NCBI GenBank assembly: GCA_030141605.1
Contig: JAQGDQ010001556.1
Coordinates: forward strand, 1-34,842
DNA from: Tubiluchus corallicola
Taxonomy: Eukaryota; Animalia; Priapulida
DNA length: 34,842 nucleotides
Direction: 5' to 3'
This document shows, in pieces, positions 315 to 32,427 of this stretch. Below the pieces are notes generated by a model that saw nothing but the letters and a program-made list of their open reading frames with translations, was not told where the DNA came from and did not search any database. A program made the position numbers and the translations under genes. Each line of letters starts with the position of its first letter. The stretch's first letter is position 1.

Positions 315-490
315 GTACTACTGTGCAGGGGCGGAACTAGGAGGGGGCGAAGGGGGGCACCCCCCTGCTACTGTGGGAGGAAAATTGCAAATTTGTTTTG
401 AAATTATTTCACTACCGAGTGTTTTGTTGCTCATTTTCAGGCTTGTCTTCGCTCTCAAGGTTCTGACTTATTAATTTTTAATAGTTTTGT

Positions 491-3222
491 GCGAGTTGCG
501 GACTATGTATTTAAGCAGGTATGTTTTTACCTTCACTGTAGAGGGCGAGTTGTGGACTTTGTATTTAAGCGGGTAGGTTTTTTACCTTCACTGTAGAGGG
601 CGAGTTGCGGACTTTGTATTTAAACAGGTATGTTTTTACCTTCACTGTAGAGGGCGAGTTGTGGACTTTGTATTTAAGCGGGTAGGTTTTTTACCTTCAC
701 TGTAGAGGGCGAGTTGCGGACTTTGTATTTAAGCAGGTATGTTTTTACCTTCACTGTAGAGGGCGAGTTGTGGACTTTGTATTTAAGCAGGTAGGTTTTT
801 TACCTTCACTGTAGAGGGCGAGTTGCGGACTTTGTATTTAAGCGGGTAGGTTTTTTACCTTCACTGTAGAGGGTGAGTTGCGGACTTTGTATTTAAGCGG
901 GTAGGTTTTTTACCTTCACTGTAGAGGGCGACTTGTGGACTCTGTATTTAAGCAGGTAGGTTTTTTACCTTCACTGTAGAGGGCGAGTTGCGGACTTTGT
1001 ATTTAAGCAGGTAGGTTTTTTACCTTCACTGTAGAGGGCGAGTTGCGGACTTTGTATTTAAGCGGGTAGGTTTTTTACCTTCACTGTAGAGGGCGAGTTG
1101 TGGACTTTGTATTTAAGCAGGTATGTTTTTACCTTCACTGTAGAGGGCGAGTTGTGGACTTTGTATTTAAGCGGGTAGGTTTTTTACCTTCACTGTAGAG
1201 GGCGAGTTGCGGACTTTGTATTTAAGCAGGTATGTTTTTACCTTCACTGTAGAGGGCGAGTTGTGGACTTTGTATTTAAGCGGGTAGGTTTTTTACCTTC
1301 ACTGTAGAGGGCGAGTTGCGGACTTTGTATTTAAGCAGGTATGTTTTTACCTTCACTGTAGAGGGCGAGTTGTGGACTTTGTATTTAAGCGGGTAGGTTT
1401 TTTACCTTCACTGTAGAGGGCGAGTTGCGGACTTTGTATTTAAGCGGGTAGGTTTTTTACCTTCACTGTAGAGGGTGAGTTGCGGACTTTGTATTTAAGC
1501 GGGTAGGTTTTTTACCTTCACTGTAGAGGGCGACTTGTGGACTCTGTATTTAAGCAGGTAGGTTTTTTACCTTCACTGTAGAGGGCGAGTTGCGGACTTT
1601 GTATTTAAGCGGGTAGGTTTTTTACCTTCACTGTAGAGGGCGAGTTGCGGACTTTGTATTTAAGCGGGTAGGTTTTTTACCTTCACTGTAGAGGGCGAGT
1701 TGCAGACTTTGTATTTAAGCGGGTAGGTTTTTTACCTTCACTGTAGAGGGCGAGTTGCGGACTTTGTATTTAAGCGGGTAGGTTTTTTACCTTCACTGTA
1801 GAGGGCGAGTTGCGGACTTTGTATTTAAGCGGGTAGGTTTTACCTTCACTGTAGAGGGCGAGTTGCGGACTTTGTATTTAAGCGGGTAGGTTTTTTACCT
1901 TCACTGTAGAGGGCGAGTTGCGGACTTTGTATTCAAGAGGGTAGGTTTTTTACCTTCACTGTAGAGGGCGAGTTGCGGACTCTGTATTTAAGCAGGTAGG
2001 TTTTTTACCTTCACTGTAGAGGGCGAGTTGTGGACTTTGTATTTAAGCGGGTATGTTTTTTACCTTCACTGTAGAGGGCGAGTTGCGGACTTTGTATTTA
2101 AGCGGGTAGGTTTTTTACCTTCACTGTAGAGGGCGAGTTGCGGACTCTGTATTTAAGCAGGTAGGTTTTTTACCTTCACTGTAGAGGGCGAGTTGTGGAC
2201 TTTGTATTTAAGCGGGTAGGTTTTTTACCTTCACTGTAGAGGGTGAGTTGCGGACTTTGTATTTAAGCGGGTAGGTTTTTTACCTTCACTGTAGAGGGCG
2301 AGTTGCAGACTTTGTATTTAAGCGGGTAGGTTTTTTACCTTCACTGTAGAGGGCGAGTTGCAGACTTTGTATTTAAGCGGGTAGGTTTTTTACCTTCACT
2401 GTAGAGGGCGAGTTGTGGACTTTGTATTTAAGCGGGTAGGTTTTTTACCTTCACTGTAGAGGGCGAGTTGCAGACTTTGTATTTAAGCAGGTAGGTTTTT
2501 TACCTTCACTGTAGAGGGCGAGTTGCGGACTTTGTATTTAAGCAGGTAGGTTTTTTACCTTCACTGTAGAGGGTGAGTTGCGGACTTTGTATTTAAGCGG
2601 GTAGGTTTTTTACCTTCACTGTAGAGGGCGAGTTGCGGACTCTGTATTTAAGCAGGTAGGTTTTTTACCTTCACTGTAGAGGGCGAGTTGCGGACTTTGT
2701 ATTTAAGAGGGTATGTTTTTACTTTCACTGTAGAGGGCGAGTTGCGGACTTTGTATTTAAGCAGGTAGGTTTTTTACCTTCACTGTAGAGGGCGAGTTGC
2801 GGACTTTGTATTTAAGCAGGTAGGTTTTTTACCTTCACTGTAGAGGGCGAGTTGCGGACTTTGTATTTAAGAGGGTATGTTTTTTACCTTCACTGTAGAG
2901 GGCGAGTTGCGGACTTTGTATTTAAGCAGGTAGGTTTTTTACCTTCACTGTAGAGGGCGAGTTGCGGACTTTGTATTTAAGAGGGTATGTTTTTTACCTT
3001 CACTGTAGAGGGTGAGTTGCGGACTTTGTATTTAAGCAGGTAGGTTTTTTACCTTCACTGTAGAGGGCGAGTTGCGGACTTTGTATTTAAGCAGGTAGGT
3101 TTTTTTACCTTCACTGTAGAGGGCGAGTTGCGGACTTTGTATTTAAGAGGGTAGGTTTTTTACCTTCACTGTAGAGGGCGAGTTGCGGACTTTGTATTTA
3201 AGAGGGTATGTTTTTTACCTTC
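491..3222. repeat. 55-bp minisatellite, about 50 copies
   Basis: Unit GCGAGTTGCGGACTTTGTATTTAAGCGGGTAGGTTTTTTACCTTCACTGTAGAGG, highly homogeneous. Confidence 0.97.
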
Positions 3223-3307
3223 GGCCTGTACAACAAAAAGGACTTGTACTTAACATTTAGTTTTTATTTTTATCGTGCATCTTAGCTGCTTCTGTTGTTT
3301 TACAATA

Positions 3308-3713
3308 CACTCATATCTCGGTTTGTCGGACCAAACCGGGGAGACGTCGGTCCGAATTTACCGATTGTCCGTATTTACCAATACTAAGCTAATACAGTAG
3401 GCACCATGTATTAGACTCACGATGATGTAGAATCAATCGTATAATTGTCTCAAAAATATCTAGTGCGGGCTGCTTCCATCGGCAATTGACTCAAATAATT
3501 CCGCATAATTGACTCTATATTTTTACATTATAGAGAAATACACATGGTTCTACTGATGTAATGATATTTACAAAGTGACAGCCCGCCAACTAGCGGTCAG
3601 CTCGTGAAACAACGGACTGTGTCCGTAGTACGCGGGACTTTTTACCGGTCCACATTTTGTCTGATTCTTCCGATATCCATAAAAGCGAGGTCCGGCAAAT
3701 CGAGATATGATTG
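3308..3713 (+). mobile_element. TA-flanked MITE family B, complete
   Basis: TIRs CACTCATATCTCGGTTTGTCGGAC / GTCCGGCAAATCGAGATATGATTG, TA on both sides; homologous to 15126-15914 and 29502-29691 in the opposite orientation. Confidence 0.88.
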
Positions 3714-4625: not shown

Positions 4626-5173
4626 GTAGGTACCGAGAGCACGTTGGAACTTCAGATCAAATTTGTAACAGATAAACTGAAAGGTACATCGTTAAGTGAG
4701 AAAAAGGTGTCAAAAGGTCAGCGTCGGCTGTATCAATTAGCACGTAGATCACGCAAGTGTACACAACATTAAACTACGTGGTAGTTTAAGTTGAGGTGAT
4801 TGAAGGGGGCGTGTTTTTCTTAATCTTATCCAATTAAATCACTTATAAATGTTTAGAGAAATAGCATGATTGGATAGTCGAGATTCTCCTGAATAGCTCA
4901 GTACCTCATTTGTAATCATTTAGTTATGTAAATGCTCATGCAGTAGCAGAAGAGCCATGGGCGTTGTAAGACCTCTTTTGAATGGTGCAGTCCTGGAGGA
5001 GTTTTGTAAGACCTCTTCTGAATGGTGCAGTTTTGGAGGAGTTAAGTACAAATTCGTTGTAAGAAGACCTGGATGCAACTCAGACCCGGATGTTCAAGTG
5101 GTGCGCCCGTACACATAAGATGTGAATGCGGATTAAGTATGGCGTCAACTACGGATGAATTTGTCGTAATGAA

Positions 5174-5884
5174 TTAATTAAGTTGTGTAAAGTCAAGCAT
5201 TCGTAAGTTGCACGGGTCGTAAGCGCAACTATCTGTATCAGCCACTAGAAGTCTCTATAGTCTTCCGACTGGTCCTGTTAGAATACAGCGATTAATTAAG
5301 TTGTGTAAAGTCGAGCATTCGTAAGTTGCACGGGTCGTAAGCGCAACTACCTGTATGAGCCACTAGAGGTCTCTGTAGTCTTCCGGCTGGTCCTGTTAGA
5401 ATACAGCGATTAATTAAGTTGTGTAAAGTCGAGCATTCGTAAGTTGCACGGGTCGTAAGCGCAACTATCTGTATCAGCCACTAGAAGTCTCTATAGTCTT
5501 TCGGCTGGTCCTGTTAGAATACAGCGATTAATTAAGTTGTGTAAAGTCGAGCATTCGTAAGTTGCACGGGTCGTAAGCGCAACTACCTGTATGAGCCACT
5601 AGAGGTCTCTGTAGTCTTCCGGCTGGTCCTGTTAGAATACAGCGATTAATTAAGTTGTGTAAAGTCGAGCATTCGTAAGTTGCACGGGTCGTAAGCGCAA
5701 CTACCTGTATCAGCCACTAGAGGTCTCTCTGGTTTTCAAGTCGGCCCTGTTAGAATACAGCTATTAACTAAGTTGTGTAAAGTCGAGCATTTGTAAGTTA
5801 CAAGGGTCTTAAGTGCAACTACCTGTAACAGCCACTAGAGGTCTCTGTAGTCTTCCGGCCGGCCCTGTTAGAATACAGCTATTA
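5174..5884. repeat. 118-bp tandem repeat, 6 copies
   Basis: Units start 5174, 5292, 5410, 5528, 5646, 5764. Confidence 0.95.
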
Positions 5885-5917
5885 GTTTCGATTATGTAAA
5901 CGTTTGATATTTTTCAG

Positions 5918-6046
5918 ATCAAAACGAATGTGTGAGAGGACTGGATAATTGTGACGAAGAAACAACAGATTGCAGAAATAATGAAGGCAGCTTCAGTTGC
6001 AGATGCCAGTCCGGCCACAGCACTGTAAATAGAACCCATTGTGAAG
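5918..6046 (+). CDS. cbEGF exon 3 (subtype A): DQNECVRGLDNCDEETTDCRNNEGSFSCRCQSGHSTVNRTHCE
   Basis: ttttcAG / GTtcg, 129 nt, phase 1-1. Confidence 0.92.
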
Positions 6047-6661
6047 GTTCGCTTGTTCATTCTCACCTTTTTCTTATGAGGCTAGGAAAACCACAGATTC
6101 TTGGTTGCCAAGTTAAGCATTGATGAGTTTGTTTAGTAAATCAATAGGCGACGGGCAGTTTTACCTGACCTGTGGGTCCTGGATTTTTGACTTGTTTTGT
6201 TAACGTTAGGATTATACTCGAGAATGACCTTGGTTTTGGTCTTGCCACAACCGTTAATATAATAAGTAGGCCCCGTTAAGTTTTTATAACAATGTACTTT
6301 TACACAATGTTGTATCAACGTAGTTGAATAAGCCTAGTTTGTTTATATTAAGTGGAACAAGAAAAAATTCTTACCCGTGAGAATTCATGCAGCCCAAGTG
6401 AAACGTTTGAAGATCTGACTTGTCATATTTGTTATTGATTTGACAAATGAAAATGTTAATTTATTATAAAATGTAAACTCACAGTTTTATTTAATAACGA
6501 TTTTACAAAACTTTTCTTTTAAATAAATTTAAAGTGCTGTCTAATTTTCAATTATTTACTATCTTAATGTCATGATTGTCATTAATGATGGTACAAAGCC
6601 ACAATTCATTAAATTTTGATACCAAACTCTAAAGACTAGAAATCTGAAAAGTTACAAATAC

Positions 6662-6702
6662 GGTCTGGATTTGAACCAGGCACCTTCGGCTTACAAGACT
6701 GC
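6662..6702 (-). pseudogene. tRNA-derived (SINE-head-like) fragment
   Basis: Minus strand GTCTTGTAAGCCGAAGGTGCCTGGTTCAAATCCAG: B-box GGTTCAAATCC and UGU-like anticodon loop; no complete cloverleaf. Confidence 0.45.
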
Positions 6703-6968: not shown

Positions 6969-7054
6969 GTACGTGACAATTATCGGTTCAAATTGAAATG
7001 TTTTAAGAAAAAAAAGCACAAATCTCTTTTTTTAATTTGCAGTGGTAACTAGAT

Positions 7055-7308
7055 TACAGTGCAACATCGTTATAGCAAATCACAGTGCAACATCATTATA
7101 GCAAATCACAGTGCAACATCATTATAGCAAATCACAGTGCAACATCATTATAGCAAATCACAGTGCAACATCATTATAGCAAATCACAGTGCAACATCAT
7201 TATAGCAAATCACAGTGCAATATCGTTATAGCAAATCACAGTGCAACATCGTTATAGCAAATCACAGTGCAACATCGTTATAGCAAATCACAGTGCAACA
7301 TCATTATA
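7055..7308. repeat. 26-bp tandem repeat, about 10 copies
   Basis: Unit CACAGTGCAACATC(A/G)TTATAGCAAAT. Confidence 0.95.
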
Positions 7309-7450
7309 CCAGATCTGCTAACTACTCTATAACCTAGGTACTCTATAAGCATATGCAGCTAATTATATGTATATGCTAATAGTGGACAGGCATGTATTAA
7401 CAATAAAAGTATGTAATTAATGTGCAATGTGTGGTTTCCTAGAAGATGTA

Positions 7451-10772: not shown

Positions 10773-10957
10773 GTAAGACAACACACTTCAAACAGGTGTG
10801 TAAATTTTTCATGATATGATAGCTGATGTATTCAGCTGTACATTAATGTCAGAATTCGTGGAAAGTAAATTTGTGGAACTTAAAAGTGGAACTTATTGTC
10901 GACCGGTTTTGAAGAATACTGTTCATTATTCAACGCTTCTAAAACCAAGAAATTTGT

Positions 10958-11299
10958 GAAAAAAGTAAACAAAGAAGTTTGCTAAAAAGTAAACAAATAA
11001 GTTTGCTATGAAGTAATCAATGAATTTGCGAAAAAAGTAAACAAAGAAGTTTGCTAAAAAGTAAACAAATAAGTTTGCTATGAAGTAATCAATGAATTTG
11101 CGAAAAAAGTAAACAAAGAAATTTGCTAAAAAGTAAACAAAGAAATTTGCTAAAAAGTAAACAAAAAGTTTGCTATAAAGTAAACAAAAAAGTTTGCTAT
11201 AAAGTAAACAAAAAAGTTTGCTAAAAAATAAACAAAGAAATTTGCTAAAAAGTAAACAAAGGAGTTTGCTAAAAAGTAAACAAAGGAGTTTGCTAAAAA
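10958..11299. repeat. 24-bp tandem repeat, about 14 copies
   Basis: Unit AAAAAGTAAACAAAGAAGTTTGCT; first six units form a 2 x 72-bp higher-order repeat. Confidence 0.93.
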
Positions 11300-11382
11300 T
11301 TGCAATTGGACTTTGTTCAGAAAGTTGTGAATTTAAATATATTATTAGTCGATTATGTAATTCAACTTGTTTTTCTACTTAG

Positions 11383-11790: not shown

Positions 11791-11970
11791 ACACTATACA
11801 AACAACAACCAGGTTATATAATTAGTACATAATTATATACGCAGAGATACAGTATAGAATATGGTATAGTATTGTATTTGCATGATAGTTTGAACGTTCA
11901 AATCTTGGCAAAGGATAGTGCAAAGACGGAAAACATAATTCATTATGGCATCTTTTTTTAATATTTCAAG

Positions 11971-12105
11971 ACCTGAACGAATGCGCCTCTGATGATCACA
12001 CCTGTGACTTAGACACGACGGAATGCGATAATTTCGATGGATCTTTTGGTTGTATATGTCTGGAGGGATTCAAATCATTACGCAACAGCGATACGTCATG
12101 CGAGG
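11971..12105 (+). CDS. cbEGF exon 8 (subtype A, 2 aa longer): DLNECASDDHTCDLDTTECDNFDGSFGCICLEGFKSLRNSDTSCE
   Basis: tttcaAG (AAG-type acceptor) / GTacg, 135 nt, phase 1-1. Confidence 0.9.
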
Positions 12106-12312
12106 GTACGCTATTAAAACAGTTCTTTGTTCAACGCTGTTCAGCATTTGTTGTAGTAAATGTTGTGCTGGTGGAATTTAGGTAATTAATAAAATTATTA
12201 CATCATGTTAATGCAAAAATCCTTTACTTACACAAAGCTTAAAAATTCATCTTTAAATTTTGTATCACATACTGACTTATTGTTCCCATGGCTTGTGTTA
12301 GCAGTAACACTC

Positions 12313-12835
12313 TTCTTCTTCTTCTTCTTCTTCTTCTTCTTCTTCTTCTTCCCAGCTTTTCCCTATTCGGGGTCGCCGTTGTGATTGAGTCTTCTCCACG
12401 CATTCCTGTTGTTGACCATCTCTTCATTTATGTCTTCCCTTCCCACAAGATCTTCACCGACTCTTCTTTTCAGGTGTCCATACCATCGCTATCTTGCGAG
12501 GCTTCCGCTACTTTTACTGTTCCTCTGATATTATTATTTCTAATTTTATCTAAAATTGTTATTCCCACCATCCATCTCAACATCCTCATCTCCACCACAT
12601 CCATTTTCTTCTCTTCGGTCTTCTTTAGAGAAGCTGCTTCCAGCCCATAGATTAGAGCGGGTCTGACCACTTCTTTGTGGACTTTCCCTTTAAGTCTCAC
12701 CGACTCATTCATAGAAGGTTTTGGCGCAGTTTTTACAGGCGGATGCCCTTCCTGACCCTAACCCTCCCTATTTATCCGGGCTTGGGACCGGCACTGAGTT
12801 GGGCTGGCTTGCCCCCCCCCCCAGTGGCTAGGTTA
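12313..12835 (-). mobile_element. Short internally deleted RTE-clade non-LTR element, copy 1 (twister 5' end + RT C-terminal remnant + (GAA)n tail)
   Basis: [20 protein letters not shown]...[10 protein letters not shown]...DKIRN and RWYGHLKR remnants; 3' end GGCGACCCCGAATAGGGAAAAGCTGG(GAA)n; 15-bp TSD TTAGCAGTAA(CA/TG)CTC at 12298-12312 and 12836-12850. Confidence 0.92.
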
Positions 12836-12839
12836 TTAG
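12758..12839 (-). ncRNA. Twister ribozyme (P1 type), apparently intact
   Basis: CUAA-UAA-CCUA-GCC-ACUG...CAGU-G-CCGG-UCCCAAGC-CCGG-AUAAA-UAGG-GAGGG-UUAG: P1 CUAA/UUAG, P2 CCUA/UAGG, P3, P4 and both pseudoknots map onto the recalled rice twister core. Confidence 0.85.
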
Positions 12840-13380
12840 CAGTAATGCTCTATAAAACTTAAACTCCCGCAATGACCATTAGGCACAGCCATTTTGAAGG
12901 AAAGTTTTTGAAACAAGATTAGTTAATGTTGCAAAGAGTTTGAAAAAGTTAATGAAAGCCATTCAAATCATACTCTTCACTAACTAAGCGAAATTATAAA
13001 TTACCGTATGTTGTCAGTAAGATTAAAAATGCATTTTCGGTGAAACAGTGGTGCACACTGGGACGGCGATTCTGTGACGTTTTACCTGGTGGCACGAATA
13101 TTTTAAATTACTAAGAATTTTCTTTTCTAGTAAGGTAAGTCTTTCAAGGAGGTGCGTGTAATTCAAAGTAATATAACTTTGTGTGGAAAAGGTTTTTGGG
13201 ACAGGCTTAAAAAGTCCCTTTTCTTCTCACTCTAAAGAAATCGTTGCTATTTTTTATTTTTTATTTTGGGCTTTGATTAAACTGTAAATTTTATTACTTA
13301 AAATAATCAAGAGTTTGATTCCTATTTCACTTTCACTTTCTGGTAGAGAACGGTTAGTCCTTGTAGTAGACTATCTAATA

Positions 13381-13806
13381 CAGGGGTGTGCAAACTGCGA
13401 CCCGCGGGCCACTTGCGGCCTGCCGAGAGATCTTGTGCGGCCCTGCCAAGAGGTTTGTCAACGTAATGAAAGTGCGGCCCACGCGATCCAGCTGAAGTCT
13501 GCGCCAATATCACAAAGATAGTGCGGGTAATTTTTTCCTCTAGATCGGATGGCATTAACCCTTACAAGACCGTTGTCACTTAATGTCACTGTCACACATG
13601 ATGAAATACACAGTTTTTAATATAAATTTTAATAACTTATAAAATAATTTCTTGAGTGTAGTAATGCAGTAGTGATCATGTGCACAAATCGGATGCAAAA
13701 AAATCATTATTAGGTCCTACTGTACTTGGTCAAACTGTCTGTGGCCCACAGGAATTGCAGGAATGTTTAATGTGGCCCGGCTAGTCAGATAATTTGCACA
13801 CCCCTG
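13381..13806. mobile_element. hAT-type MITE
   Basis: TIR CAGGGGTGTGCAAA / TTTGCACACCCCTG, 8-bp TSD ATCTAATA/AGCTAATA, subterminal GCGGCCC-like motifs. Confidence 0.88.
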
Positions 13807-14873
13807 AGCTAATATGTATCTCTGTGAGTGTGCATCTTTAAAAAATAACAGAATTAGATTTTTGAGATAGTAAAACAATTACAATTTAGAACAATACAAG
13901 TTTTTAAGACGTTTTAGATCATAGACCAAACTGAGCTGGTTTAGAAAGTCTACTCCTGTGTCGAAAATGCTTAATTTTATTACGAAGAATGGCTGTTTTT
14001 TATTCTGCAAAAATGCTTTATCTGATTCTAACGATTTGAATGTTTTTAAGTTTTTTAAATTTATGTAAAAAGTTTGAATTTTGTAAAAGTAGGCGGGAGA
14101 GCAAAATTTGGGCGACTGAATGCTCCGAATTCAACTACTTTTGCATTTTCGATGCAAACAAATACTGAATTGAGTTTAATTTGTAGCGATTTTCTAAATA
14201 TATGTACTTTTACTTTTATATTGAAAATGAGAACGAGTAATTAAAATATGCGCATAATTATCGATGAACATCTCATTTTTACAATGATGATATTTACAAT
14301 GATGATGAAACAAGAGTAATTGTACATGTTTAGTAATAAAGGTTTACTGGTATATTATAAGTGACATGTGTTTAGTTCTATGTTTTAATAATGATAATAG
14401 AAATTACAGTATGACTAAATTACAACATGATTGCATTAAATGCACATGTTTACAGAATGTAGAAATACAAAAAGACCTTAAACATACCTGTTATACTGCA
14501 TCCATAGTCATCCAAGATAATGAGCAAAGGGGAACATGGCGATTGTCAGGGCTATGTGACTCCTGGCTAGCTAGGCCTTTGGCACAGAAAAATTACTATA
14601 TGTAGATCTCTGAAAGAAGCCTAATTCAGCTAATTACAAGGCCAGTTGGGCATGATGCCAGCTATACTATAGACTTGAATGACAATTACATGGATAATTG
14701 ACTACGATGCAAAGCTAACACTACGTTTACAACCAAGAACCAATTTGCAAGGGCAGATCCATGCAAACAGGTAGAAAACACTTTAAGTTGAGATATGCCA
14801 TACTCGCGTAGTTCTCGACATCCTATTTTCATTTATTGCTTTAACTAACAGATGTTACTCTAATGTGTTTTAG

Positions 14874-15002
14874 ATCAAGACGAATGTTCGTTAGACACTC
14901 ATAATTGCCGGGAGGATACAACTCGTTGTGTCAACAATGTCGGCAGCTTCTCTTGTGCCTGTTTACTTGGATATAAACAACTAGATGCTAGAAGCTGTCT
15001 AG
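14874..15002 (+). CDS. cbEGF exon 9 (subtype A): DQDECSLDTHNCREDTTRCVNNVGSFSCACLLGYKQLDARSCL
   Basis: ttttAG / GTatg, 129 nt, phase 1-1. Confidence 0.93.
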
Positions 15003-15125
15003 GTATGTATAACAAACAACTTCATCTTTGTCTGTCTTTCTTTGTCTGTTTCAGTTGCTTTACAGTCATTCATAGTAAGATGGAGACATGACTGTTTGTG
15101 TAATAATGCAATTCTTGATCTGGTA

Positions 15126-15914
15126 CGACTCATATTTCTCTTTGCTGGACCTCGCTTTTGCCGATAACGGAAGAATGGGACAAAATATGAATCGCTAAAA
15201 GTCCCGCATACTGCAGACACAATCCGTTGTTTCGCGAGCTGACCGCTAGATGGCGGGCCATCACTTTGTTTACATCATTGCATCAGTGTAACCAAGCAGC
15301 GTGTAAATACACGTGTGTTCTGTGTAGCTTGTGTTTAATGTTTAACTCGTTTAATCAAAACCAGTTCTGCGGAATTATTTGAGACAATGACCGACAGTTT
15401 TTATATACTTTTGCATTGGAGCGGCACGTACAGTCGACCCTGGTTAAACCGGACTCCGTTAACCCTGATATCGGATAAGACGGACATCATCCGTGGTAAA
15501 AGAAACTGACCGATTTCTGTCCGAGCCGGAGCGCTAAACACAACACGGCCTACCGACTGTACAATAATTTCTTTATCCTCACAGGTTAACTATTTTAAAG
15601 TAATATACAGTATAGTACATAGTGCAATGTATATAGGCCTTATTAAGGTGATTCCTGTATAATATAGACCATATATAGGCATATCGGATAAATCGGACAT
15701 CGGCTAAACCGGACACCCCCCCCCCCCAATTAGTCCGTTTTAACGAGGGTTGACTGTACTAGACGTTTTTAATACGATTACGCGATTGATTCTACGTTAC
15801 TGTGAATCTATTACACTCTGCCTACTGTATTAGCTTAGCATCGGTACATACGGACAATCTGCAAAGTCGGAGCGATGTTTTCCCGCTTTTGTCCGGCAAA
15901 CCAGGAATTGAGTG
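15126..15914 (-). mobile_element. MITE family B interrupted by the family A insertion
   Basis: Collinear with the reverse complement of 3308-3713 once 15431-15758 is removed; TA-flanked. Confidence 0.85.
15431..15756 (+). mobile_element. Tc1/mariner-pogo-type MITE family A, complete, nested in family B
   Basis: TIRs CAGTCGACCCTGGTTAAACCGGAC / GTCCGTTTTAACGAGGGTTGACTG, TA on both sides. Confidence 0.9.
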
Positions 15915-16888
15915 TACCAGCAAAAATCTATTTTCGTTGTACCAACAAGTTTACAAATGTAACTTTAGCCGTCACGTAGTAAGCAAATCCAAGAAGCTAA
16001 CAATATCAGCTGCCTTTTGCCATCCAGGAAAAACTTGGTCTGAAAAAAAATTTTCCCAGAAAGCAAGATACTGAGAATTCTTTGTAAATTTCTAAAATGT
16101 TCCTTTTCTAAACAACGTGTTGTCCTTGTCTTGTTTAAATTTTAAAATAACACAAGATGAATTGATTTCTGGTTTTTTTTTTGGAAGTGTGACAAACTTT
16201 GGTTGTAAGTGTGTCAGAACTTAAGATTCTTTAAAAATGTCTGAGCTTCCTTTTTTAGACAACTTACTGTATTGTATGCTTTTTTAAATGAGACAAAAAT
16301 TAATTGATTATTGTTTTTTTTGTGAGTTGGGCAGACTTTAATTGTATGTGTGTCAACACCCGTATTTGTAGCAAAAAGTAAGTTTTACCGCAGTATTTGG
16401 TGTAGGTTCTATTTTGCCAATATACGATATATTTTGTATGTACAATATATATACATACAATATACAATATATATACATACAATATACAATATACAGATTC
16501 ATTGTGCGCACTTGCATGTGCTGTAGATAATACGTTAAGTGTACCACAGCAATGCGTCTTAACTACACGCGTTACTTTACATGTGTAAAGCAAAGTCGTT
16601 TGCCGCATCAGTTCAGTAACTTCAGTTGTTTTTCATGGACTTTACTTAATTATGTGTCTTGGGAACAAGAAAAATGAACTAGGTAAGGTTCTGTTTAGCT
16701 GTTAAAAGGTACTATTACGACAGCATTGACTGCGACGCATTGTCAAGTGTACACAAATGCATTGTCTGGTACACTTAAAATGCATTGTCTGGTACACTTA
16801 ACCTTTGACCTGTTCATGATCACCATCAATCTCTGGAACCGTGAAAAGGCTTACTATCTATGCTTAGTAAAATAAGAGCATTTTTCAG

Positions 16889-17017
16889 ACGTTGACGAAT
16901 GCGAGACTGGTGCTCATGATTGTGCGGCTGAAGGAACTAGATGTAGAAACATGGAAGGCAGCTTTAGTTGTCAGTGTGAACGTGGCTTTACAAGATCAAG
17001 TCGCACACAGTGTGAAG
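16889..17017 (+). CDS. cbEGF exon 10 (subtype A): DVDECETGAHDCAAEGTRCRNMEGSFSCQCERGFTRSSRTQCE
   Basis: tttttcAG / GTaac, 129 nt, phase 1-1. Confidence 0.93.
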
Positions 17018-17254
17018 GTAACTAATTTTTGTTCTCTGTGCGCAAATAATATTAAAAATCTTAAAGAAATTAGCAGAAGTAATTTTGTAGATTTTTTCAG
17101 TTTTTCTTTCACGTCAGTGTGAACGTGGCTTTACAAGATCAAGTCGCACACAGTGTGAAGGTAACAAATTGGTGTTCTCTGTGCAAATAATATTAAAAAT
17201 CTTAAAGAAATTACCAGTAGTAATTTTGTAGTTTTTTTCAGTTTTTTTTCACGT
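16971..17254 (+). repeat. ~143-bp tandem duplication covering the 3' third of exon 10, its donor and downstream intron
   Basis: TCAGTGTGAACGTGGCTTTACAAGATCAAGTCGCACACAGTGTGAAGGTAAC present twice. Confidence 0.92.
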
Positions 17255-17654
17255 GATGATTTTTGTGAAAATTAAATTCTCATTTTTTTCACTATGGCTG
17301 TGGCTTAACGCATTTTGACGTTGCTGCTACTATTATAATGACTTTAGCTGGGCTGCCTGTTTGATTTATTCAAAGTTACAAACTTGTTTGGCATTGTCAA
17401 TGTATTAGCCTGTGAATGTGTGGCCTTAAACCACAGTTTCAATTCTTCTGTCCAACCACAGTGGGTAACCTACTAATTTAAGGACACAGTGAAAAACAGA
17501 GCAATTAAAAACAAATTAATTAATTTGTGCCATTAATAATAGCTTTTTATTTACTACCAAGTAAAAAAGATATCTATTGAAATTATTATTACACAATGAG
17601 ATATCCAGCATCTAAGAAAAATGTCTATGTCTGCAATTATTGGTAAAACTATTG

Positions 17655-17879
17655 ATAAGATAAGATAAGATAGGATAGGATAGGATAGGATAGGATAGGA
17701 TAGGATAGGATAGGATAGGATAGGATAGGATAGGATAGGATAGGATAGGATAGGATAGGATAGGATAGGATAAGATAAGATAAGATTAGGATGGGATGGG
17801 ATGGGATGGGATGGGATGGGATGGGATGGGATGGGATGGGATGGGATAGGATAGGATAAGATAATATAAGATAAGATAA
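17655..17879. repeat. Compound pentanucleotide microsatellite (GATAA/GATAG/GATGG)
   Basis: Direct observation; abuts a minus-strand AATAAA, so may be an expanded LINE tail. Confidence 0.93.
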
Positions 17880-18125
17880 TATTTATTTTCATTGGTATGA
17901 TATAAACAGTACATATTTGTAGAAACATGAGCTTAAAGCTCGTAAACCGATATCAAACATAATGTATATGAGCGATACTGTAACATGGTAATAATATGTA
18001 CTTCTTAAAATCTTTTGCATGCCACCAGAGGTATTGGTAGAAGAAAAAATTTTTAACTACATGAAGATACTAAAAAAGTGAGACAGTAAAAAATTGAGAC
18101 AGAATTGATGATCAATTTTGCTAAT

Positions 18126-19119
18126 TGTGTGCTTGCAAACCAACACCACCCACAAGTCGGCACAGTTAAAACTACGATATGATGTCTTCAGTGTAGAATA
18201 CACCAAAAATTTAGTCAAATGTCAATTTTTTGTTTTTTATAATGCTAAACATATTGGATTTTCATATTCTAGCATCAAATTATCAGGAAAATGTTCACAA
18301 AATGGAAGCAGTCTTTTTTTTTGTTGCTAAGCACAGATCTTTGTCAGGAAGGGCCGTTTACTGGATTTAACCATTTAAACGCAGCCTGCACCTCAACTTC
18401 AACGTGGATTATCTCAGCTTAGCAATAACATAGAGCGATGAGCTTGGTATCAAAATGATCCGCATGAAATGTGTGCTTGCATTGCAAAATCGTCCATAAA
18501 TCAGCAATTAAGCTTTTCTAGTTATTCACATATCCTGAAAATCCATTTCATGAGGATCATTTTGATACCAAGTTCATCACTCTATGTTATTTCTAAGCTG
18601 AGATAATCCACATTGAAGTTGAGGTGCAGGCTACGCTTTGAAAAACATAATCTTGAGAAAATCACTGTTAAAGTCAGCCATTGTTTTTTGTTGCGTTTCT
18701 ACAAAACACTTAGCAACTGCACAAATGTTGGTTGCTATGGACTTTGCAAGAACACATTGAAGTTATGTTTAAATCCAGTAGATGGCTCTTCCTGACGAAG
18801 ATCTGGGCTTGGCAACAGAAAAAACCCGAAGCAAAATGACTGCTTCCATGAGCTACTATTGGAGTTTGAAAATACTTTTACAATTGCATTACTAATTTCT
18901 AGGCAAAAAAGTGGTTACAAGATTATAAAATTAAATTTTTAGCATTTCTTGAACACTTTCCTGGCAATCTCATGCTAGAATATAAAAGTCTAATATATTT
19001 AGCATTTGTTTTATAAAAAACAAAAAATTGACATTTGACCAAATTTTGGTGTATTCTACTTTGAAGCATCATGACGTAGTTTTAACTATGCCAACTTATG
19101 AATGGTTTTGGTTTGCACC
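18126..19119. mobile_element. Long palindromic (fold-back) non-autonomous element
   Basis: 18126-18470 is the reverse complement of 18544-19119 with indels; partial second copy at 27089-27407. Confidence 0.85.
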
Positions 19120-19365
19120 AATACAATGATGTTTTGGATGAGACGATTATACTCTATTTTACAATCCTGGCATTTCGTGTAAAACTTTTTTTCATTCTAC
19201 ATTCGTTGCACCTTACGGAAAGAGATCAAACTGTTTTACAAACATAAAAGGGTCTTGTTGTTCAATTCAATGCATGCGATACTTGTCACGTTTCGTAACT
19301 GTTCTATTTTTGCTATTATTTGTACATTAGTATAATCATTACTTGCCGTTGTTCACACGCTTTAG

Positions 19366-19491
19366 ATCGGAACGAATGCGACAGTGACAATGACTGCCAC
19401 GAGTTAGCTGATTGTCGTAACACCCCGGGTAGCTACCGCTGTGAGTGCAATGTGCCGGGATATTCCGGAAACGGAGTGACAACGTGCAGCG
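19366..19491 (+). CDS. cbEGF exon 11 (subtype B, 1 aa shorter): [42 protein letters not shown]
   Basis: ctttAG / GTgag, 126 nt, phase 1-1. Confidence 0.93.
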
Positions 19492-19825
19492 GTGAGCTAT
19501 GTTTCTTAATATCTAACACATCCTTCTACCCTTCCTGTGTGATCTAACCTTTCTCCCAGTTCTTTTTTGTTCACTCATCCATTTTTTATCAGATTCATAT
19601 GACAGTGGGCTTATACAAGCCTTTGCTTCTCTAGCCCACTGCAGTACAATTATTCTTTTATGATAATGCTAGTGTATGAAACATAACAATTTAATACAGT
19701 AAGATGTAATAATTTTGATGTCACTGTGTGCTTAATGTCATTATATTGTACTGAATGTGATAATAATAATAAAATTAAAAAAATCTCTGCTCTTTTAATA
19801 GTTGTTCACTTGAATAATGACTATT

Positions 19826-20328
19826 CTTCTTCTTCTTCTTCTTCCCAGCTTTTCCCTATGCGGGATCGCCGTTGTGAATGAGTCTTCTCCAGGCATTCCT
19901 GTTGTTGACCATCTCTTCATTTATGTCTTCCCTTCCCACAAGATCTTCACCGACTCTTCTTTTCAGGTGTCCATACCATCGCAATCTTGCGAGGCTTCCA
20001 CTACTTTTACTGTTCCTCTGATATTATTATTTCTAATTTAATCTCTTCTTGTTATTCCCACCATCCATCTCAACATCCTCATCTCCACCACACCCATTTT
20101 CTTCTCTTCGGTCTTCTTTAGAGAAGCTGCTTCCAGCCCATAGATTAGAGCGGGTCTGACCACTTCTTTGCGGACTTTCCCTTTAAGTCTCACCGACTCA
20201 TTCATAGAAGGTTTTGGTGCAGTTTTTACAGGCGGATGCCCTTCCTGACCCTAACCCTGCCTATTTATCCGGGCTTGGGACCGGCACTGAGTTGGGCTGG
20301 CTTGCCCCCCCCCCCCAGTGGCTAGGTT
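19826..20328 (-). mobile_element. Short internally deleted RTE-clade element, copy 2
   Basis: Near-identical to 12313-12835 with the same junctions; perfect 18-bp TSD ACTTGAATAATGACTATT at 19808-19825 and 20329-20346. Confidence 0.93.
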
Positions 20329-20333
20329 ACTTG
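20251..20333 (-). ncRNA. Twister ribozyme, probably inactive copy
   Basis: Same core as copy 1 but GAGGG is CAGGG (position 20259) and P1 is mismatched (CAAG/UUAG). Confidence 0.75.
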
Positions 20334-20619
20334 AATAATGACTATTAGTTTACTTTAAACAGTTGCATATGTTGCACAAAATGATTGTTCAACGCATCAT
20401 GCAACAGAAACCACATTCTACAGCTATTTGCAACAGCATGTTTAATTTCAGGATAAGATTTTGAGTACAGTGAGTTCTCACTTAATGACACTAATGCATT
20501 CCAGTAAGACGTGGCGTTAAGCAAAATGCTGCTAAACGAAACCAAGACTTCCGCGTAGTTGTTTTACATTAGCTTATATACAGTGGGGATCTTAATCTGA
20601 TAATGTTTAGGGGATGTTA

Positions 20620-22191: not shown

Positions 22192-22353
22192 ATTTGATCT
22201 GATACTCCTTATAAGGATATGTAAGTATGACTACCCATAGTTCTTGTTACCATAGTTAGTTCTTTTGTTTTCAGTAACACATCTTAGTAACAATTAGAAA
22301 GTTATATGCTCAACTTTTTTCTCAATAAAAAAAAATTTGTTCAAAATACGAAA

Positions 22354-23679
22354 ATGTCGTTGAGTGCTAGCGATGATGGCGACATTAAGACACCAAATAA
22401 AGGAGCAACCGAAACTGCTAAACCTGCTGCTGCACCTGCCGAAAAAGAGCTGAAAAAAACTTTTGGGAAAAAGCGTTACTTTAAAGACTTGGCGAGAGAT
22501 GTTAAACAGAATTTGCAATTTTTGAAACCGCCCAAGCCTCTGCCGCCCGCCTCTTCGACCGTATTTAAACACCAGTGTGCGGATCACGTGCTGACATTCG
22601 ACGTCGAAGAGTTCCGGACCGTGACGGTGTCCTTTGCAAATGTGGCGCCACAGATTAGGGCTATCCTAGAAAAGATGCCATCAGACCGAACGCAAGCCGA
22701 GTATGATTTGATGATTGACCTCCTGTGGCCGTTAAAAGGTTTCAGACGTCTGCCCAGGCCGGTGATGCAACACGTCATTCAAGTTCTTAACTACGACATC
22801 ATTACCGACGGCCGCGTCATTACCAACCAGGGCGCCGTCGGCGAGTCCTTCTACGTGGTCCTGCATGGAACCGTTACGGTGAAGGTGACCGCCGAAGACG
22901 AAAAAACCGGCCGCAAGGCAACGCGCATTGTGGGCGAGCTGAAGGAGGGGTCATCTTTTGGGGAGTTGGCTTTGCTGCAGAGTACAACCAGACAAGCAAC
23001 AACTGTCACTAATGGGACAGTCGGGCTACTTAGAGTTGATAAGCGCGATTTTGACGAAGTGTTAAAAGTTGTCCATCAGCAAGAGTGGAACGATAGATAC
23101 GATTACTTGCGAGCCATTCCATACTTCTCCTCCTGGTCTGATGAAGAACTGCTGTCCAGTACGAACAACACAACGATTGAAGAATTTCCTCCGGAAACGG
23201 TGATCGTCGGTAACACCAGCGAAGTTCAGCCGTACATCCGCTTCATTGTGTCTGGAGAATGTCGCATCTTAAAGGAAGTTTCCACGCGTCTTCTGAAGCA
23301 GCACACGAACTACTTTAACAGTTACAAAGGCGATTCCGTCCTCCTCTCATTAACGCGGTTGAGCCGACATCACTACTTCGGCATCGGGGAGTCGCTCGTC
23401 AATACCTACATCGTGTCGATTAGTAACGTTAAGTGCCTGCTCCTGCCTCGTATAATATTCATGAAATACGGTAAGCTAGATCAACTTCAAATCATGATGG
23501 ACTCGCTGAAGGCCGTTCTGCCCACGGATGCCGAGCTGGTGATTAGGTACAAGGAAGCTTGCCGATGGGCCAAGTACAAGAGCGACCTGGTGTCGGAAAT
23601 AATCGGCAAGCGCCGAGTGAAAACTAATGTTACTTTAGATGATATACCACAATCCATTCGCATGGCAACAGCACTGTAA
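22354..23679 (+). CDS. Nested intronless cyclic-nucleotide-binding-domain protein, CNBD2-like (one canonical plus one degenerate cNMP-binding domain)
   Basis: 457-aa ORF from 22306; AAAATG at 22354 is the more likely start. QGAVGESFYVVLHGTV and FGELALLQSTTRQAT (phosphate-binding cassette); second domain IPYFSSWS...FIVSGECRI...YFGIG lacks the cassette Arg. GC-richer than flanks. Confidence 0.88.
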   Translation: MSLSASDDGDIKTPNKGATETAKPAAAPAEKELKKTFGKKRYFKDLARDVKQNLQFLKPPKPLPPASSTVFKHQCADHVLTFDVEEFRTVTVSFANVAPQIRAILEKMPSDRTQAEYDLMIDLLWPLKGFRRLPRPVMQHVIQVLNYDIITDGRVITNQGAVGESFYVVLHGTVTVKVTAEDEKTGRKATRIVGELKEGSSFGELALLQSTTRQATTVTNGTVGLLRVDKRDFDEVLKVVHQQEWNDRYDYLRAIPYFSSWSDEELLSSTNNTTIEEFPPETVIVGNTSEVQPYIRFIVSGECRILKEVSTRLLKQHTNYFNSYKGDSVLLSLTRLSRHHYFGIGESLVNTYIVSISNVKCLLLPRIIFMKYGKLDQLQIMMDSLKAVLPTDAELVIRYKEACRWAKYKSDLVSEIIGKRRVKTNVTLDDIPQSIRMATAL

Positions 23680-26556: not shown

Positions 26557-26785
26557 TGATGTCGTACTGAGCTCTTGAGGCTTTTATGAGCTCACAAAAA
26601 TGATGTCATGCTGATGTCATAACCGTGATGTCAGTATGATCTCAGGTTGATGAACTCATGCATACCTCATGGCATGACACAATGACTTGAGCTCAGCATG
26701 ATGTCATGACATGAGGTCAGTATGACATCACTGTGACATCAGAGATCATACATGAGGTCAGTATGACATCACTATGACATCAGAC
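26557..26785. repeat. Inverted-symmetric cluster of TGATGTCA / TGACATCA motifs
   Basis: TGATGTCA on the left half, its reverse complement TGACATCA on the right half. Confidence 0.6.
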
Positions 26786-26996: not shown

Positions 26997-27088
26997 GTGA
27001 GTAGTAGATTACGGACATTCTGCCCTCTGCACATGCCCCCTGCTGAATTTATTCATTTGATTGCTTAACTTTTTTGAAACATTATCAT

Positions 27089-27407
27089 ATGTGTGCTTGC
27101 GTAGCAAAATTGTCCATAAGTCAGCAATTAAGTTTTTCTAGGTATTCAAATTTCCTGAATCTTCATTTCATGAGGATCATTTTGATACCAAGTTCATAAC
27201 TCTATGTTATTTAAATTAAATTTTTTGGTATTTTTTGAATATTTTCTTGATGCTAGAATATAAAAGTACATTATATTTAGCATTTGTTTTTACAAAAAAC
27301 AAAAATTTGACATTTGACCAAATTTTTGACACGGTCCACTTTGAAAAATCATAATGTAGTTTTAACTATGCCGATTTATGGACGGTTTTGCTTTGAAAGC
27401 ACACAGT
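27089..27407. mobile_element. Partial copy (centre + deleted right arm) of the fold-back element
   Basis: CATTTCATGAGGATCATTTTGATACCAAGTTCAT and TGACATTTGACCAAATTTT shared with 18544-19100. Confidence 0.8.
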
Positions 27408-27646
27408 TGAATTCTCAAGTTGAAATCTATTTTCTATTTATTGCCTTTGTTGCTATGGTTGTTAATTTTACATATGTATATCGGATGGTGCAAGAAAGTA
27501 CCTAGTTTTTGATTACAATATTTTATAAGAGGAAAATTATGAGAAGAAGATTTTTCCAAAGGTACAGAAATTTTGAAAAAAGTCAAAAAAATAAATAAAT
27601 TTTGAAACCAGTTTTGTGTGAAATATTGTTAAAGTATTCTGTGTTT

Positions 27647-28062: not shown

Positions 28063-28621
28063 TCTGTGTGTCCACCAATTCCAATACGAACTAGACCAAG
28101 GCATTTCTTTTAATAGCTGACACATTTTCTCACTTTTTTAAGGTGTATTTCATCCTAATACTCGACAATTTTTGCCTTTAGTTTCTTTGCGTCGAAAAGC
28201 TCTGTGTGGCCATCATACGCTTCCTCTTTAAGGGAATTCCAGATGCCATAACCCAGAGGATTACGTCCCATTTTTCTTGGCAACAAATGTTTATCAACAC
28301 TTTCCTTTCTGTGGTGACGGCAATGATGTAAACTGATTGATCTATTCATTGTTTTGTTTCCATTCTAATAAATGTTTTCATACATCGACATTGTCGTTTT
28401 CAGTTGATGATCAGCTGACATTATTGCAGCATTTAATCTTTTAACATGCAGAAGTTTTTCAGCCGTAACTTAGAAACCACTAAAATTGTAAACTTGTGAC
28501 TTTCACAACCAAAGGTTAATATTTTGCAATACCATTCTGTGAAAGTTCAATTTTGAATCTAATACTATTGCAGTCTAAGCTAAGCACGCCTGGAATTTAC
28601 GTAATGAACGAATACATAAGT

Positions 28622-29120
28622 ATTTTATAAGCTGATTAAACTGCTAAATGTCCCTACACCATTATGGATGGAAACCGACATTTTATAAGCTGGTTAAACT
28701 GCTAAATGTCCCTACACCATTATGGATGGAAACTGCCATTTTATAAGCTGATTAAACTGCTAAATGTCCCTACATTCTTATGGATGTAAATCAGCATTTT
28801 ATAAGCTGGTTAAACTGCTAAATGTCCCTACACCATTATGGATGGAAACCGACATTTTATAAGCTGGTTAAACTGCTAAATGTCCCTACACCATTATGGA
28901 TGGAAACTGCCATTTTATAAGCTGATTAAACTGCTAAATGTCCCTACATTCTTATGGATGTAAATCAGCATTTTATAAGCTGGTTAAACTGCTAAATGTC
29001 CCTACATTCTTATGAATGTAAATCAGCATTTTATAAGCTGGTTAAACTGCTAAATGTCTGGACACCATTATGGATGGAAACCGCCATTTTATATGGTGAT
29101 TAAACTGCTAAATGTCCCTA
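28622..29120. repeat. 58-bp tandem repeat, about 8.5 copies, with a 3-unit higher-order pattern
   Basis: Unit ATTTTATAAGCTG(A/G)TTAAACTGCTAAATGTCCCTACACCATTATGGATGGAAACCGAC; unit ends cycle ACCGAC, ACTGCC, TCAGC twice. Confidence 0.93.
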
Positions 29121-29190
29121 TCCTCTACAGCATTATTGTATGTAAGCACGGTAGACACATAGTTGTTTTAATTCTTTCACATTTATTTAG

Positions 29191-29319
29191 ATTTTGACGA
29201 ATGTGCAATGGGAATTGATACTTGTGATAAAGAAACGACTGTTTGTCAGAACCGAGATGGTAGTTTCCGCTGTTCTTGCACTTGGGGTCATCAACGAGTA
29301 ACGAGCAGGCTGTGTGTTG
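29191..29319 (+). CDS. cbEGF exon 14 (subtype A): DFDECAMGIDTCDKETTVCQNRDGSFRCSCTWGHQRVTSRLCV
   Basis: atttAG / GTatg, 129 nt, phase 1-1. Confidence 0.92.
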
Positions 29320-29385: not shown

Positions 29386-29913
29386 CAGGGATGATAATTT
29401 TCCGCGGATAAGCGGAATTCTGAGTTTTTGGAAGACCAGTAGTGCCATTTTTGTAAATCTCGTAAATTCTTTGAGAAAATTTTTACGGATCCAGTACATT
29501 ATTTCACAAGCTGACCGCTAGTTGGCAGGCCGTCACTTTGTTTACATCAAGTACATCAGTGTAACCACGTGTATATCTCTATGTATAAAAATATAGAATC
29601 AATTGTGTGGAGTTATTTGAGTCAATCGCAGACAGTTTTTATATACTTTTGCATAGGAGCGGCCAGTACTTAGGCGTTTTTGAGACAATTAGGTATCATG
29701 TATCCTTGATAGTTGGGTATTTTAAATTATGCATGAAACAAGGTAATTGATATTTTAAGTCCACTTAGAGGCTCTCTGTGGTCACAAAATTGCAATTTGT
29801 TGCTGACTCAGAAGGGGCTTTGCTCCCCTTGAACCTCCATGGGGGGGGCCTATGCGGTCCCCAAACCCCCGGCCTGTTTCAGAGTTTTTTGCAATTCGTC
29901 ATTCTCATCCCTG
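29386..29913. mobile_element. Non-autonomous DNA transposon with CAGGG ends that carries the family B fragment
   Basis: CAGGGATGATAAT / ATTCTCATCCCTG inverted ends, CAATTG on both flanks, GC-rich subterminal block at 29814-29874. Confidence 0.6.
29502..29691 (-). mobile_element. Internal fragment of MITE family B
   Basis: AGCTGACCGCTAG...TCACTTTGTTTACATC...GACAGTTTTTATATACTTTTGCAT shared with 15236-15430. Confidence 0.8.
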
Positions 29914-32293: not shown

Positions 32294-32422
32294 ATCGGGA
32301 CGAGTGCACCATGGTCGAGGATGATTGTAATGAATTTGCTACTTGCGTGAACACGGTGGGAAGTTTCTTCTGTCGGTGTGACGTCGAGGGATACGCAGGG
32401 GACGGTGTCAACATGTGCTCAG
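32294..32422 (+). CDS. cbEGF exon 15 (subtype B): DRDECTMVEDDCNEFATCVNTVGSFFCRCDVEGYAGDGVNMCS
   Basis: ttgtcAG / GTacg, 129 nt, phase 1-1. Confidence 0.93.
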
Positions 32423-32427
32423 GTACG

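Follow-up and report, generated by a model that had tools for sequence, protein, structure and literature searches.

In Schistosoma mansoni, the retrotransposon Perere-3 carries T-variant twister ribozymes at its 5' end; cleavage was reported in vitro and in reporters, the target-site duplication (TSD) adjoins the AA of the cut site, and the TSD makes helix P1 (Liu 2021, PMC8501958). Truncated, catalytically competent twisters are also described as conserved at the 5' ends of the RTE superfamily, with a likely role in 5' processing (2020 review, PMC7761336). Bipartite non-autonomous RTE families are common and have been tied to 5' ribozymes (Kojima 2018, PMC5786205; Kojima 2020, PMC7245038), and the short internally deleted elements (SIDEs) of R2 are mobilised in trans and owe their 5' end to self-cleavage (Eickbush 2012, PMC3414825). 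Here, we describe a twister-headed element of the priapulid Tubiluchus corallicola, found as two copies in contig JAQGDQ010001556.1, whose 34,842 nt were analysed as a whole (hereafter, the window; Table 1). We conclude that it is probably a high-copy, protein-less derivative of a long interspersed element (LINE) with a single open reading frame (ORF) encoding an APE-type endonuclease and a reverse transcriptase (RT), with 5' ends at or within one base of the twister cut, likely inserted by target-primed reverse transcription with the protein of a related element.

The two minus-strand copies are identical at 468 of 484 columns of a pairwise alignment that covers each copy from its initial A up to the tail, and their flanks are unrelated. 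A blastn search found no third copy within the window. A first-pass annotation, made from the sequence alone, had proposed two copies of about 0.5 kb with distinct TSDs and the same internal junctions, each fusing a 5' module to the broken C-terminus of an RTE-type ORF and a (GAA)n tail. All of this was recovered: each copy has its own TSD, three deletions are common to both, and the ORF remnant maps to residues 816–962 of P0006, a full-length relative. Junction A joins the head to the ORF at about 12701, junction B is a frameshifting deletion of ~16 nt at 12498/12497, and junction C is an in-frame deletion of 30 codons at 12434/12433.

The element begins with the A of AACCUAGCC, the sequence at the predicted cut site (12834 in copy 1, 20328 in copy 2). 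The annotation had also let the element begin with the predicted cleavage product, which agrees with the TSD comparison: the TSD of copy 2 adjoins the A, and in copy 1 a single additional T (12835) stands between TSD and A. The TSD of copy 2 has two bases in common with the tail, and 10 of the 16 bp in that of copy 1 form a perfect run.

For comparison, we used public contigs from the 4 of 24 runs (X1–X4) whose contigs contain at least half of the query words; the contigs of X5–X24 contain 0–16% of these words, which has no bearing on expression or host. Copy 1 was found to be inserted inside another multi-copy repeat (about 12226–12297 and 12836–12901). Paralogues of this repeat occur without the insert, and contigs jump it, for example from 12267 to 12835. 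In these empty paralogues (a loose-end consensus read by eye against the window) the target is present once, and the TSD mismatches of copy 1 (CA upstream, TG downstream) fall on their CpG, a pattern that matches CpG decay. Because the next paralogue base also lies within a CpG, the T at 12835 may be a 17th TSD base mutated from C to T, giving a 17-bp TSD; alternatively, it may be a retained or untemplated base. Whatever this T is, the four bases of the P1 5' strand in copy 1 come from the target and not from the element.

For both copies the top Rfam match in the window was the twister-P1 covariance model (RF03160), with model positions 1–68 covered in full. All four P1 pairs form in copy 1 and three of four in copy 2, with 5' strands taken from different targets. 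The annotation had spoken of a repaired P1; in copy 1 no repair is needed, because the target completes it. P2 has four of four pairs in both copies, P3 is a long hairpin, P4 forms with a probability of 0.84–0.98, and the bases for pseudoknots T1 and T2, in loop and junction, agree with the consensus (a geometry read off the consensus and not computed).

The general base of twisters is G45 in rice and G48 in env22, where it comes just before A49; the general acid is A7 or A6, and P1 is dispensable (PMC5408937). Copy 1 keeps the A at the cut site (12834) and the G at 12766. Copy 2 has a G>C change at 20259 and reads CAGGG where copy 1 reads GAGGG, so the GAGGG motif ascribed to both copies in the first-pass annotation stands for copy 1 and falls for copy 2. 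We take the first G of this motif to be the general base, from the place of env22 G48 before A49 and from the rice numbering. Because this presumed general-base G is changed to C, the twister of copy 2 is predicted to be inactive. The catalytic G and the rest of the head have no listed variant reaching 5% in any of the four runs, and this G is retained in more than 95% of the family depth; the change therefore looks private to copy 2.

The body derives from the far end of the ORF. P0006 has 962 aa, contains endonuclease (APE) and RVT_1 domains and lacks a CCHC motif, and the remnant is identical to it at 84 of 111 positions (83/111 for P0195, of 985 aa, and 83–85/111 when P0075 is included). 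The remnant begins downstream of the Pfam RT core (P0006 544–778) and is therefore the C-terminal part of the ORF, not the RT catalytic domain. The parent LINE likely belonged to the RTE clade, an assignment for which we rely on its architecture and on C-terminal motifs. A 74-codon query retained 67 relatives out of 84 candidates, and the nearest named RT relatives were from Penaeus. RTE elements are known to transfer horizontally (PMC6007223), so that this affinity is a poor guide to the host.

The head ends in ATG-AGT-C at 12708–12702, and it probably represents the whole 5' untranslated region (UTR) of the parent plus the start codon, because these 7 bases agree with the M-S-L that opens the ORF in the five closest inspected full-length relatives that begin at an upstream methionine (P0195, P0187, P0075, P0080 and P0084). 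Junction A removed about 2.5 kb of the parent. As the annotation had held, no coding capacity is left: the native start codon now encodes M-S-R-stop, and the longest in-frame remnant, of 80 aa, lacks both APE and RT core. That frame (12473–12712, minus strand) arises because the deletion brings the ATG at 12712, further upstream, into the reading frame of the remnant; it spans 80 codons in copy 1, and a stop shortens it in copy 2. The element is thus a LINE 5' head joined to the last ~145 ORF codons; this ORF part carries two more deletions and is followed by a 3' UTR of 11 nt and a tail of GAA repeats.

How abundant this arrangement is was estimated from contig depth. In X1, contig depth summed over the element exceeds that of the flanks by a factor of about 5,300–6,700, or about 170–220 when divided by 31 for unitig overlap. 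The copy number is in the hundreds to thousands, and at least in the hundreds, depth being no exact copy count. Depth is steady across junction A (862,938 and 762,904 in adjoining bins) and drops from 415,548 to 17,764 at the 5' end. At 12834, 34 contigs of X1 exit the element with an agreement of 0.44, that is, into differing flanks; this is the only 5'-end row among the 24 loose-end rows listed (538 further). Pieces bridging a junction with at least 31 letters on each side number at least four for A, at least one for B and at least three for C among the 32 pieces listed (11,412 further), and all of them differ from copy 1. Together, bridging contigs and high, flat depth in X1 uphold the multi-copy family with shared junctions that the annotation had proposed, and we conclude that it is a high-copy family of independent, TSD-flanked insertions with the same junctions.

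A single deleted LINE copy might instead have spread passively, through segmental duplication or as part of another repeat; or the copies might be independent abortive insertions of the full-length LINE, with no self-propagating family behind them. Copy 1 does lie within a multi-copy repeat, of depth 43,000–78,000 at 12226–12277 and about 50,000 at 12850–12901, and a similar single deleted element exists elsewhere (locus L003, below). Yet flanks and TSDs differ while the three junctions are identical, the host-repeat paralogues lack the insert, and the depth in X1 stays flat across junction A, so that these explanations are largely refuted and very improbable.

The main rival concerns what sets the 5' end. 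An internal RNA polymerase II promoter in the kept 5' UTR could do so, the twister being an inherited passenger that is now unneeded. Such a promoter would suit the apparent retention of the whole 5' UTR, the loss of the presumed catalytic G in copy 2, and the expectation that bipartite LINEs are polymerase II transcripts with the 5' extreme responsible (Kojima 2018, PMC5786205). Three observations make it unlikely: in two TSDs and 34 contigs the 5' end falls on the cleavage base, nearly all of the family depth retains the catalytic G, and the variant sites listed number 0 in the 134 nt of the head against 9 in the 335 nt of the body (Fisher p = 0.07, with parent copies adding to the body only).

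We searched for relatives with a pattern of the head, which returned three loci in metagenome contigs (L001, L002 and L003) and none in viral contigs. Their twister-P1 scores of 61.3, 40.3 and 41.3 bits are all under the gathering score. The heads of L001 and L002, which come from other genomes, resemble that of the element over 66 nt at 91% and 93 nt at 82%, respectively, and both precede a long APE-RT ORF. The ORF of L002 is uninterrupted and aligns to P0006 19–962, with a degenerate cut site. L001 (1–3088) shows a permuted or tandem order, in which the 3' end and GAA tail are followed after 22 nt by a twister head that begins U-AAC, then by APE and RT; this may come from tandem copying or from a loop that the assembly formed through a TSD. 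In L003 (825–1332) the head is joined straight to the RT at about residue 725 of P0006, a different and independent internal deletion. L003 is a single contig end with a degenerate P2, and no family is demonstrated for it.

Near-identical twister heads sit on RTE-type elements that are just 43–53% identical to P0006, and the contigs of this genome showed no parent with both ends. Both observations would suit a hybrid origin, in which two LINE lineages contributed the twister head and the 3' part, respectively, in the manner of the R2/R1 hybrid SIDEs. The ATG-AGT-C of the head nevertheless fits, over 7 bases only, the M-S-L with which the five full-length relatives closest to the 3' part begin, and we regard a hybrid as quite improbable. 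Like passive duplication, it is a weaker rival than the internal promoter. Less-deleted relatives do exist in these samples, as follows from contigs that leave the element at 12433 (6 in X1, 10 in X2 and 4 in X3), whose translation, read by eye, gives the INGDLREK of P0195 that is deleted here, and from one X2 contig that at 12698 runs on into upstream RT sequence.

On our preferred reading, in which the twister sets the 5' end of a LINE derivative, a source copy would be transcribed from an outside promoter upstream of it, and its flank would supply the P1 5' strand. The twister would then cut before the AA and give every transcript the same 5' end, as the Rfam fit, the observed 5' ends and the example of Perere-3 suggest. 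The parent protein would bind the retained 3' end and insert the RNA at unrelated sites, producing TSDs of 16–18 bp. Because the 3' UTR is so short, the region it recognises would have to be largely coding, and with only 11 nt of UTR this may be why coding sequence was kept at the 3' end. Each new copy takes the 5' strand of P1 afresh from the site it enters and decays afterwards: the presumed catalytic G is gone from copy 2, and both copies are antisense within introns.

Cleavage would also leave the P1 3' strand free, and this strand could guide second-strand joining, biasing insertion to sites that rebuild P1 and the base preceding the cut; the ribozyme would then be both 5' processor and a site selector that determines which copies turn into new sources. 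Hints of this are the 4/4 and 3/4 P1 pairs of the two copies (chance 0.016, post hoc) and the T that precedes the A in copy 1, copy 2 and L001. They come from two or three cases, and the 34 flanks of X1, in which T is excluded by construction, have no consensus; such a bias is doubtful. An end-joining helix in the cleaved RNA, in which bases 3–8 pair with the last six before the tail (p about 0.98), was rejected as unsupported. In the control, 7–9% of body windows pair equally well, the result for L001 is weaker (30%) and that for L002 is 4%, and head-to-tail duplexes exceed shuffles in one of eight tests, in L001 only.

Several results weigh against a twister-headed, cleaving and mobile family. 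The covariance model supports the twister of the first-pass annotation through full-model matches (E 1.2e-12 and 2.8e-9), but both copies score below the gathering threshold of 67.2 bits. Nested folding places the P2-containing fold 5.6–8 kcal/mol above the minimum; the L001 head gives the same outcome, and because nested folding omits both pseudoknots and L001 behaves alike, we consider it uninformative on the twister fold. RNA runs carry just 0–10% of the query words. X1, X3 and X4 are one sample, maybe the source of the window, and only X2 is a second one. Among the rows listed, the 12834 row was seen in X1 and not in X2–X4, and the spread of 5' ends is thus only partly sampled. In X2, the depth at the 3' end is about 15–20 times that of the head, which points to a predominance of headless copies in this sample. 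In X1–X4, no contig was seen to join the head to an undeleted ORF. Finally, neither the 120 homologues listed nor the cluster members bore an element name that could anchor an RT tree for the likely RTE clade.

Compared with Perere-3, the element shares the organisation of a twister-headed single-ORF APE-RT LINE, a TSD next to the AA, a TSD-made P1 and the lack of site specificity, and the distance from ribozyme to AUG is similar (about 112 or 147 nt in Perere-3, 126 nt here). Perere-3 differs in being full-length and coding, with GTAA tails and assayed ribozymes, whereas the present element lacks ORF residues 3 to about 840, comes from another animal and is known from sequence only. Of the T-variants in that study, 18.6% have no downstream domain (PMC8501958), and these could include derivatives of the present kind.

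The bipartite families RTE-N2_Lch, RTESINE1/2, WALLSI3 and Bov-A are alike in joining LINE 5' and 3' parts by internal deletion, in keeping the original 5' end and in having no small-RNA head. The ribozymes cited for them are HDV-like (hepatitis delta virus; Ruminski 2011) and not twisters (PMC5786205), and a short 3' part is kept (70 bp in RTE-N2_Lch), as opposed to ~335 nt of ORF in three pieces here. R2 SIDEs and R2/R1 hybrid SIDEs likewise combine a ribozyme head with a LINE 3' end by internal deletion (PMC3414825). They have an HDV-like ribozyme, occur only in 28S rDNA, are co-transcribed with rRNA and are rare (PMC3414825), in contrast to the twister, the scattered intronic sites and the hundreds to thousands of copies of the present family. 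Membership among R2 SIDEs was rejected, as Rfam gave a twister match and no HDV or rRNA match in the window, and the copies sit in introns of an epidermal growth factor (EGF)-repeat gene. The element works like a SIDE without being one. The review that places twisters at RTE 5' ends does so in one sentence citing work in preparation, and the passage concerned describes no non-autonomous derivative (PMC7761336).

Two other classes were considered and rejected. A short interspersed element transcribed by RNA polymerase III is not indicated, as a tRNA search found no tRNA, Rfam gave no match of tRNA, 5S or 7SL type, and none of 12 matches to an A-box consensus fell within the copies. Retrozymes, which carry hammerhead ribozymes in long terminal repeats or tandem repeats (PMC6765202), were ruled out by the single twister per monomeric copy and the LINE-derived body and tail.

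Part by part, all of this is known in print: twister heads with a TSD-made P1, twisters at RTE 5' ends, bipartite RTE derivatives and ribozyme-headed SIDEs. Among the titles and abstract openings that our literature searches listed, which covered neither Repbase and Dfam nor subscription papers or the PMC8501958 supplements, we found no description of a twister-headed non-autonomous RTE family. The combination likely carries the mechanism shown for full-length elements of flatworms over to a parasite that has no protein of its own and exploits such elements; two published pieces come together in it, and a specialist will be little surprised. If our reading is true, a twister head, like the HDV-type head of R2, lets a protein-less RTE derivative reach high copy number, which would back the published idea that ribozyme-set 5' ends explain the bipartite parasites of RTE, Ingi and R2. 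Since the P1 strand of each copy differs by target, the family is also a natural library of flank-completed ribozymes, in which one could ask whether flank completion decides which copies become sources and whether sense intronic copies are purged for cutting pre-mRNA.

Table 1. Positions in the window of the two element copies, of their parts and of the exons of the surrounding gene.
Feature	Position	Strand	Remarks
Copy 1	12313..12834	-	Predicted cleavage A (12834) to end of (GAA)13 tail
Copy 1 upstream TSD	12836..12851	-	16 bp, 2 mismatches; last 4 bases are the P1 5' strand
Copy 1 downstream TSD	12298..12313	-	TSD comparison
Copy 1 twister-P1	12758..12839	-	Rfam 64.8 bits, E 1.2e-12; predicted cut 12835/12834
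Head	12702..12834	-	Apparent full 5' UTR, 126 nt from A to ATG at 12708, plus first 7 coding bases
ORF remnant segment 1	12498..12700	-	P0006 residues 816-883; 53/69 identical over 816-884
ORF remnant segment 2	12435..12497	-	P0006 889-909, 17/21 identical; after frameshifting deletion
ORF remnant segment 3	12363..12434	-	P0006 940-962 plus native stop codon; after 30-codon deletion
3' UTR and tail	12313..12362	-	11-nt 3' UTR, (GAA)13
Copy 2	19826..20328	-	Layout as copy 1, tail of 7 GAA units; segment 1 has an in-frame stop
Copy 2 upstream TSD	20329..20346	-	18 bp, perfect; adjoins predicted cleavage A directly
Copy 2 downstream TSD	19808..19825	-	TSD comparison
Copy 2 twister-P1	20251..20333	-	Rfam 53 bits, E 2.8e-9; predicted inactive
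EGF-gene exons	about 200, 4500, 5930, 6840, 9480, 10650, 11380, 11970, 14875, 16890, 19365, 25350, 26870, 29200, 32300	+	Domain search

The host gene occupies positions 1–32500 of the window on the plus strand and consists of many single-exon calcium-binding EGF repeats. EGF_CA exons surround the copies (about 11970–12105, 14875–15000, 19365–19490 and 25350, plus strand), and both copies are intronic and antisense to the gene. The pre-mRNA of this gene therefore contains no ribozyme and cannot be the source of read-through for these copies; the read-through origin suggested in the first-pass annotation does not apply as regards the host gene. Two antisense copies out of two is what the purging of sense copies would give, a weak indication (chance 0.25).

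Within the span of the EGF gene lies an intronless ORF of 462 codons (22291–23679, plus strand) with a cyclic-nucleotide-binding domain (PF00027, E 8.6e-16) and just three weak homologues at 25–28% identity; it may represent a gene nested in the EGF gene, a retrocopy or one large exon. Nested inverted repeats with arms of 37–95 nt occupy 18123–19127, with pieces at 27084–27408, and suggest a foldback DNA element or one resembling a miniature inverted-repeat transposable element. Weak microRNA matches at 18434–18586 and 26593–26737 are probably hairpins of such repeats. Minisatellites were found at 382–3000, 5055–5944, 7001–7364, 10889–11371, 28564–29201 and 32343–34842, with units of 55, 118, 26, 24, 58 and 66/89 nt, respectively. 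A dispersed repeat occurring in both orientations at 1–155, 3306–3710, 15130–15916 and 29484–29632, with arms of up to 159 nt that are 79–90% complementary, probably represents another transposon family.

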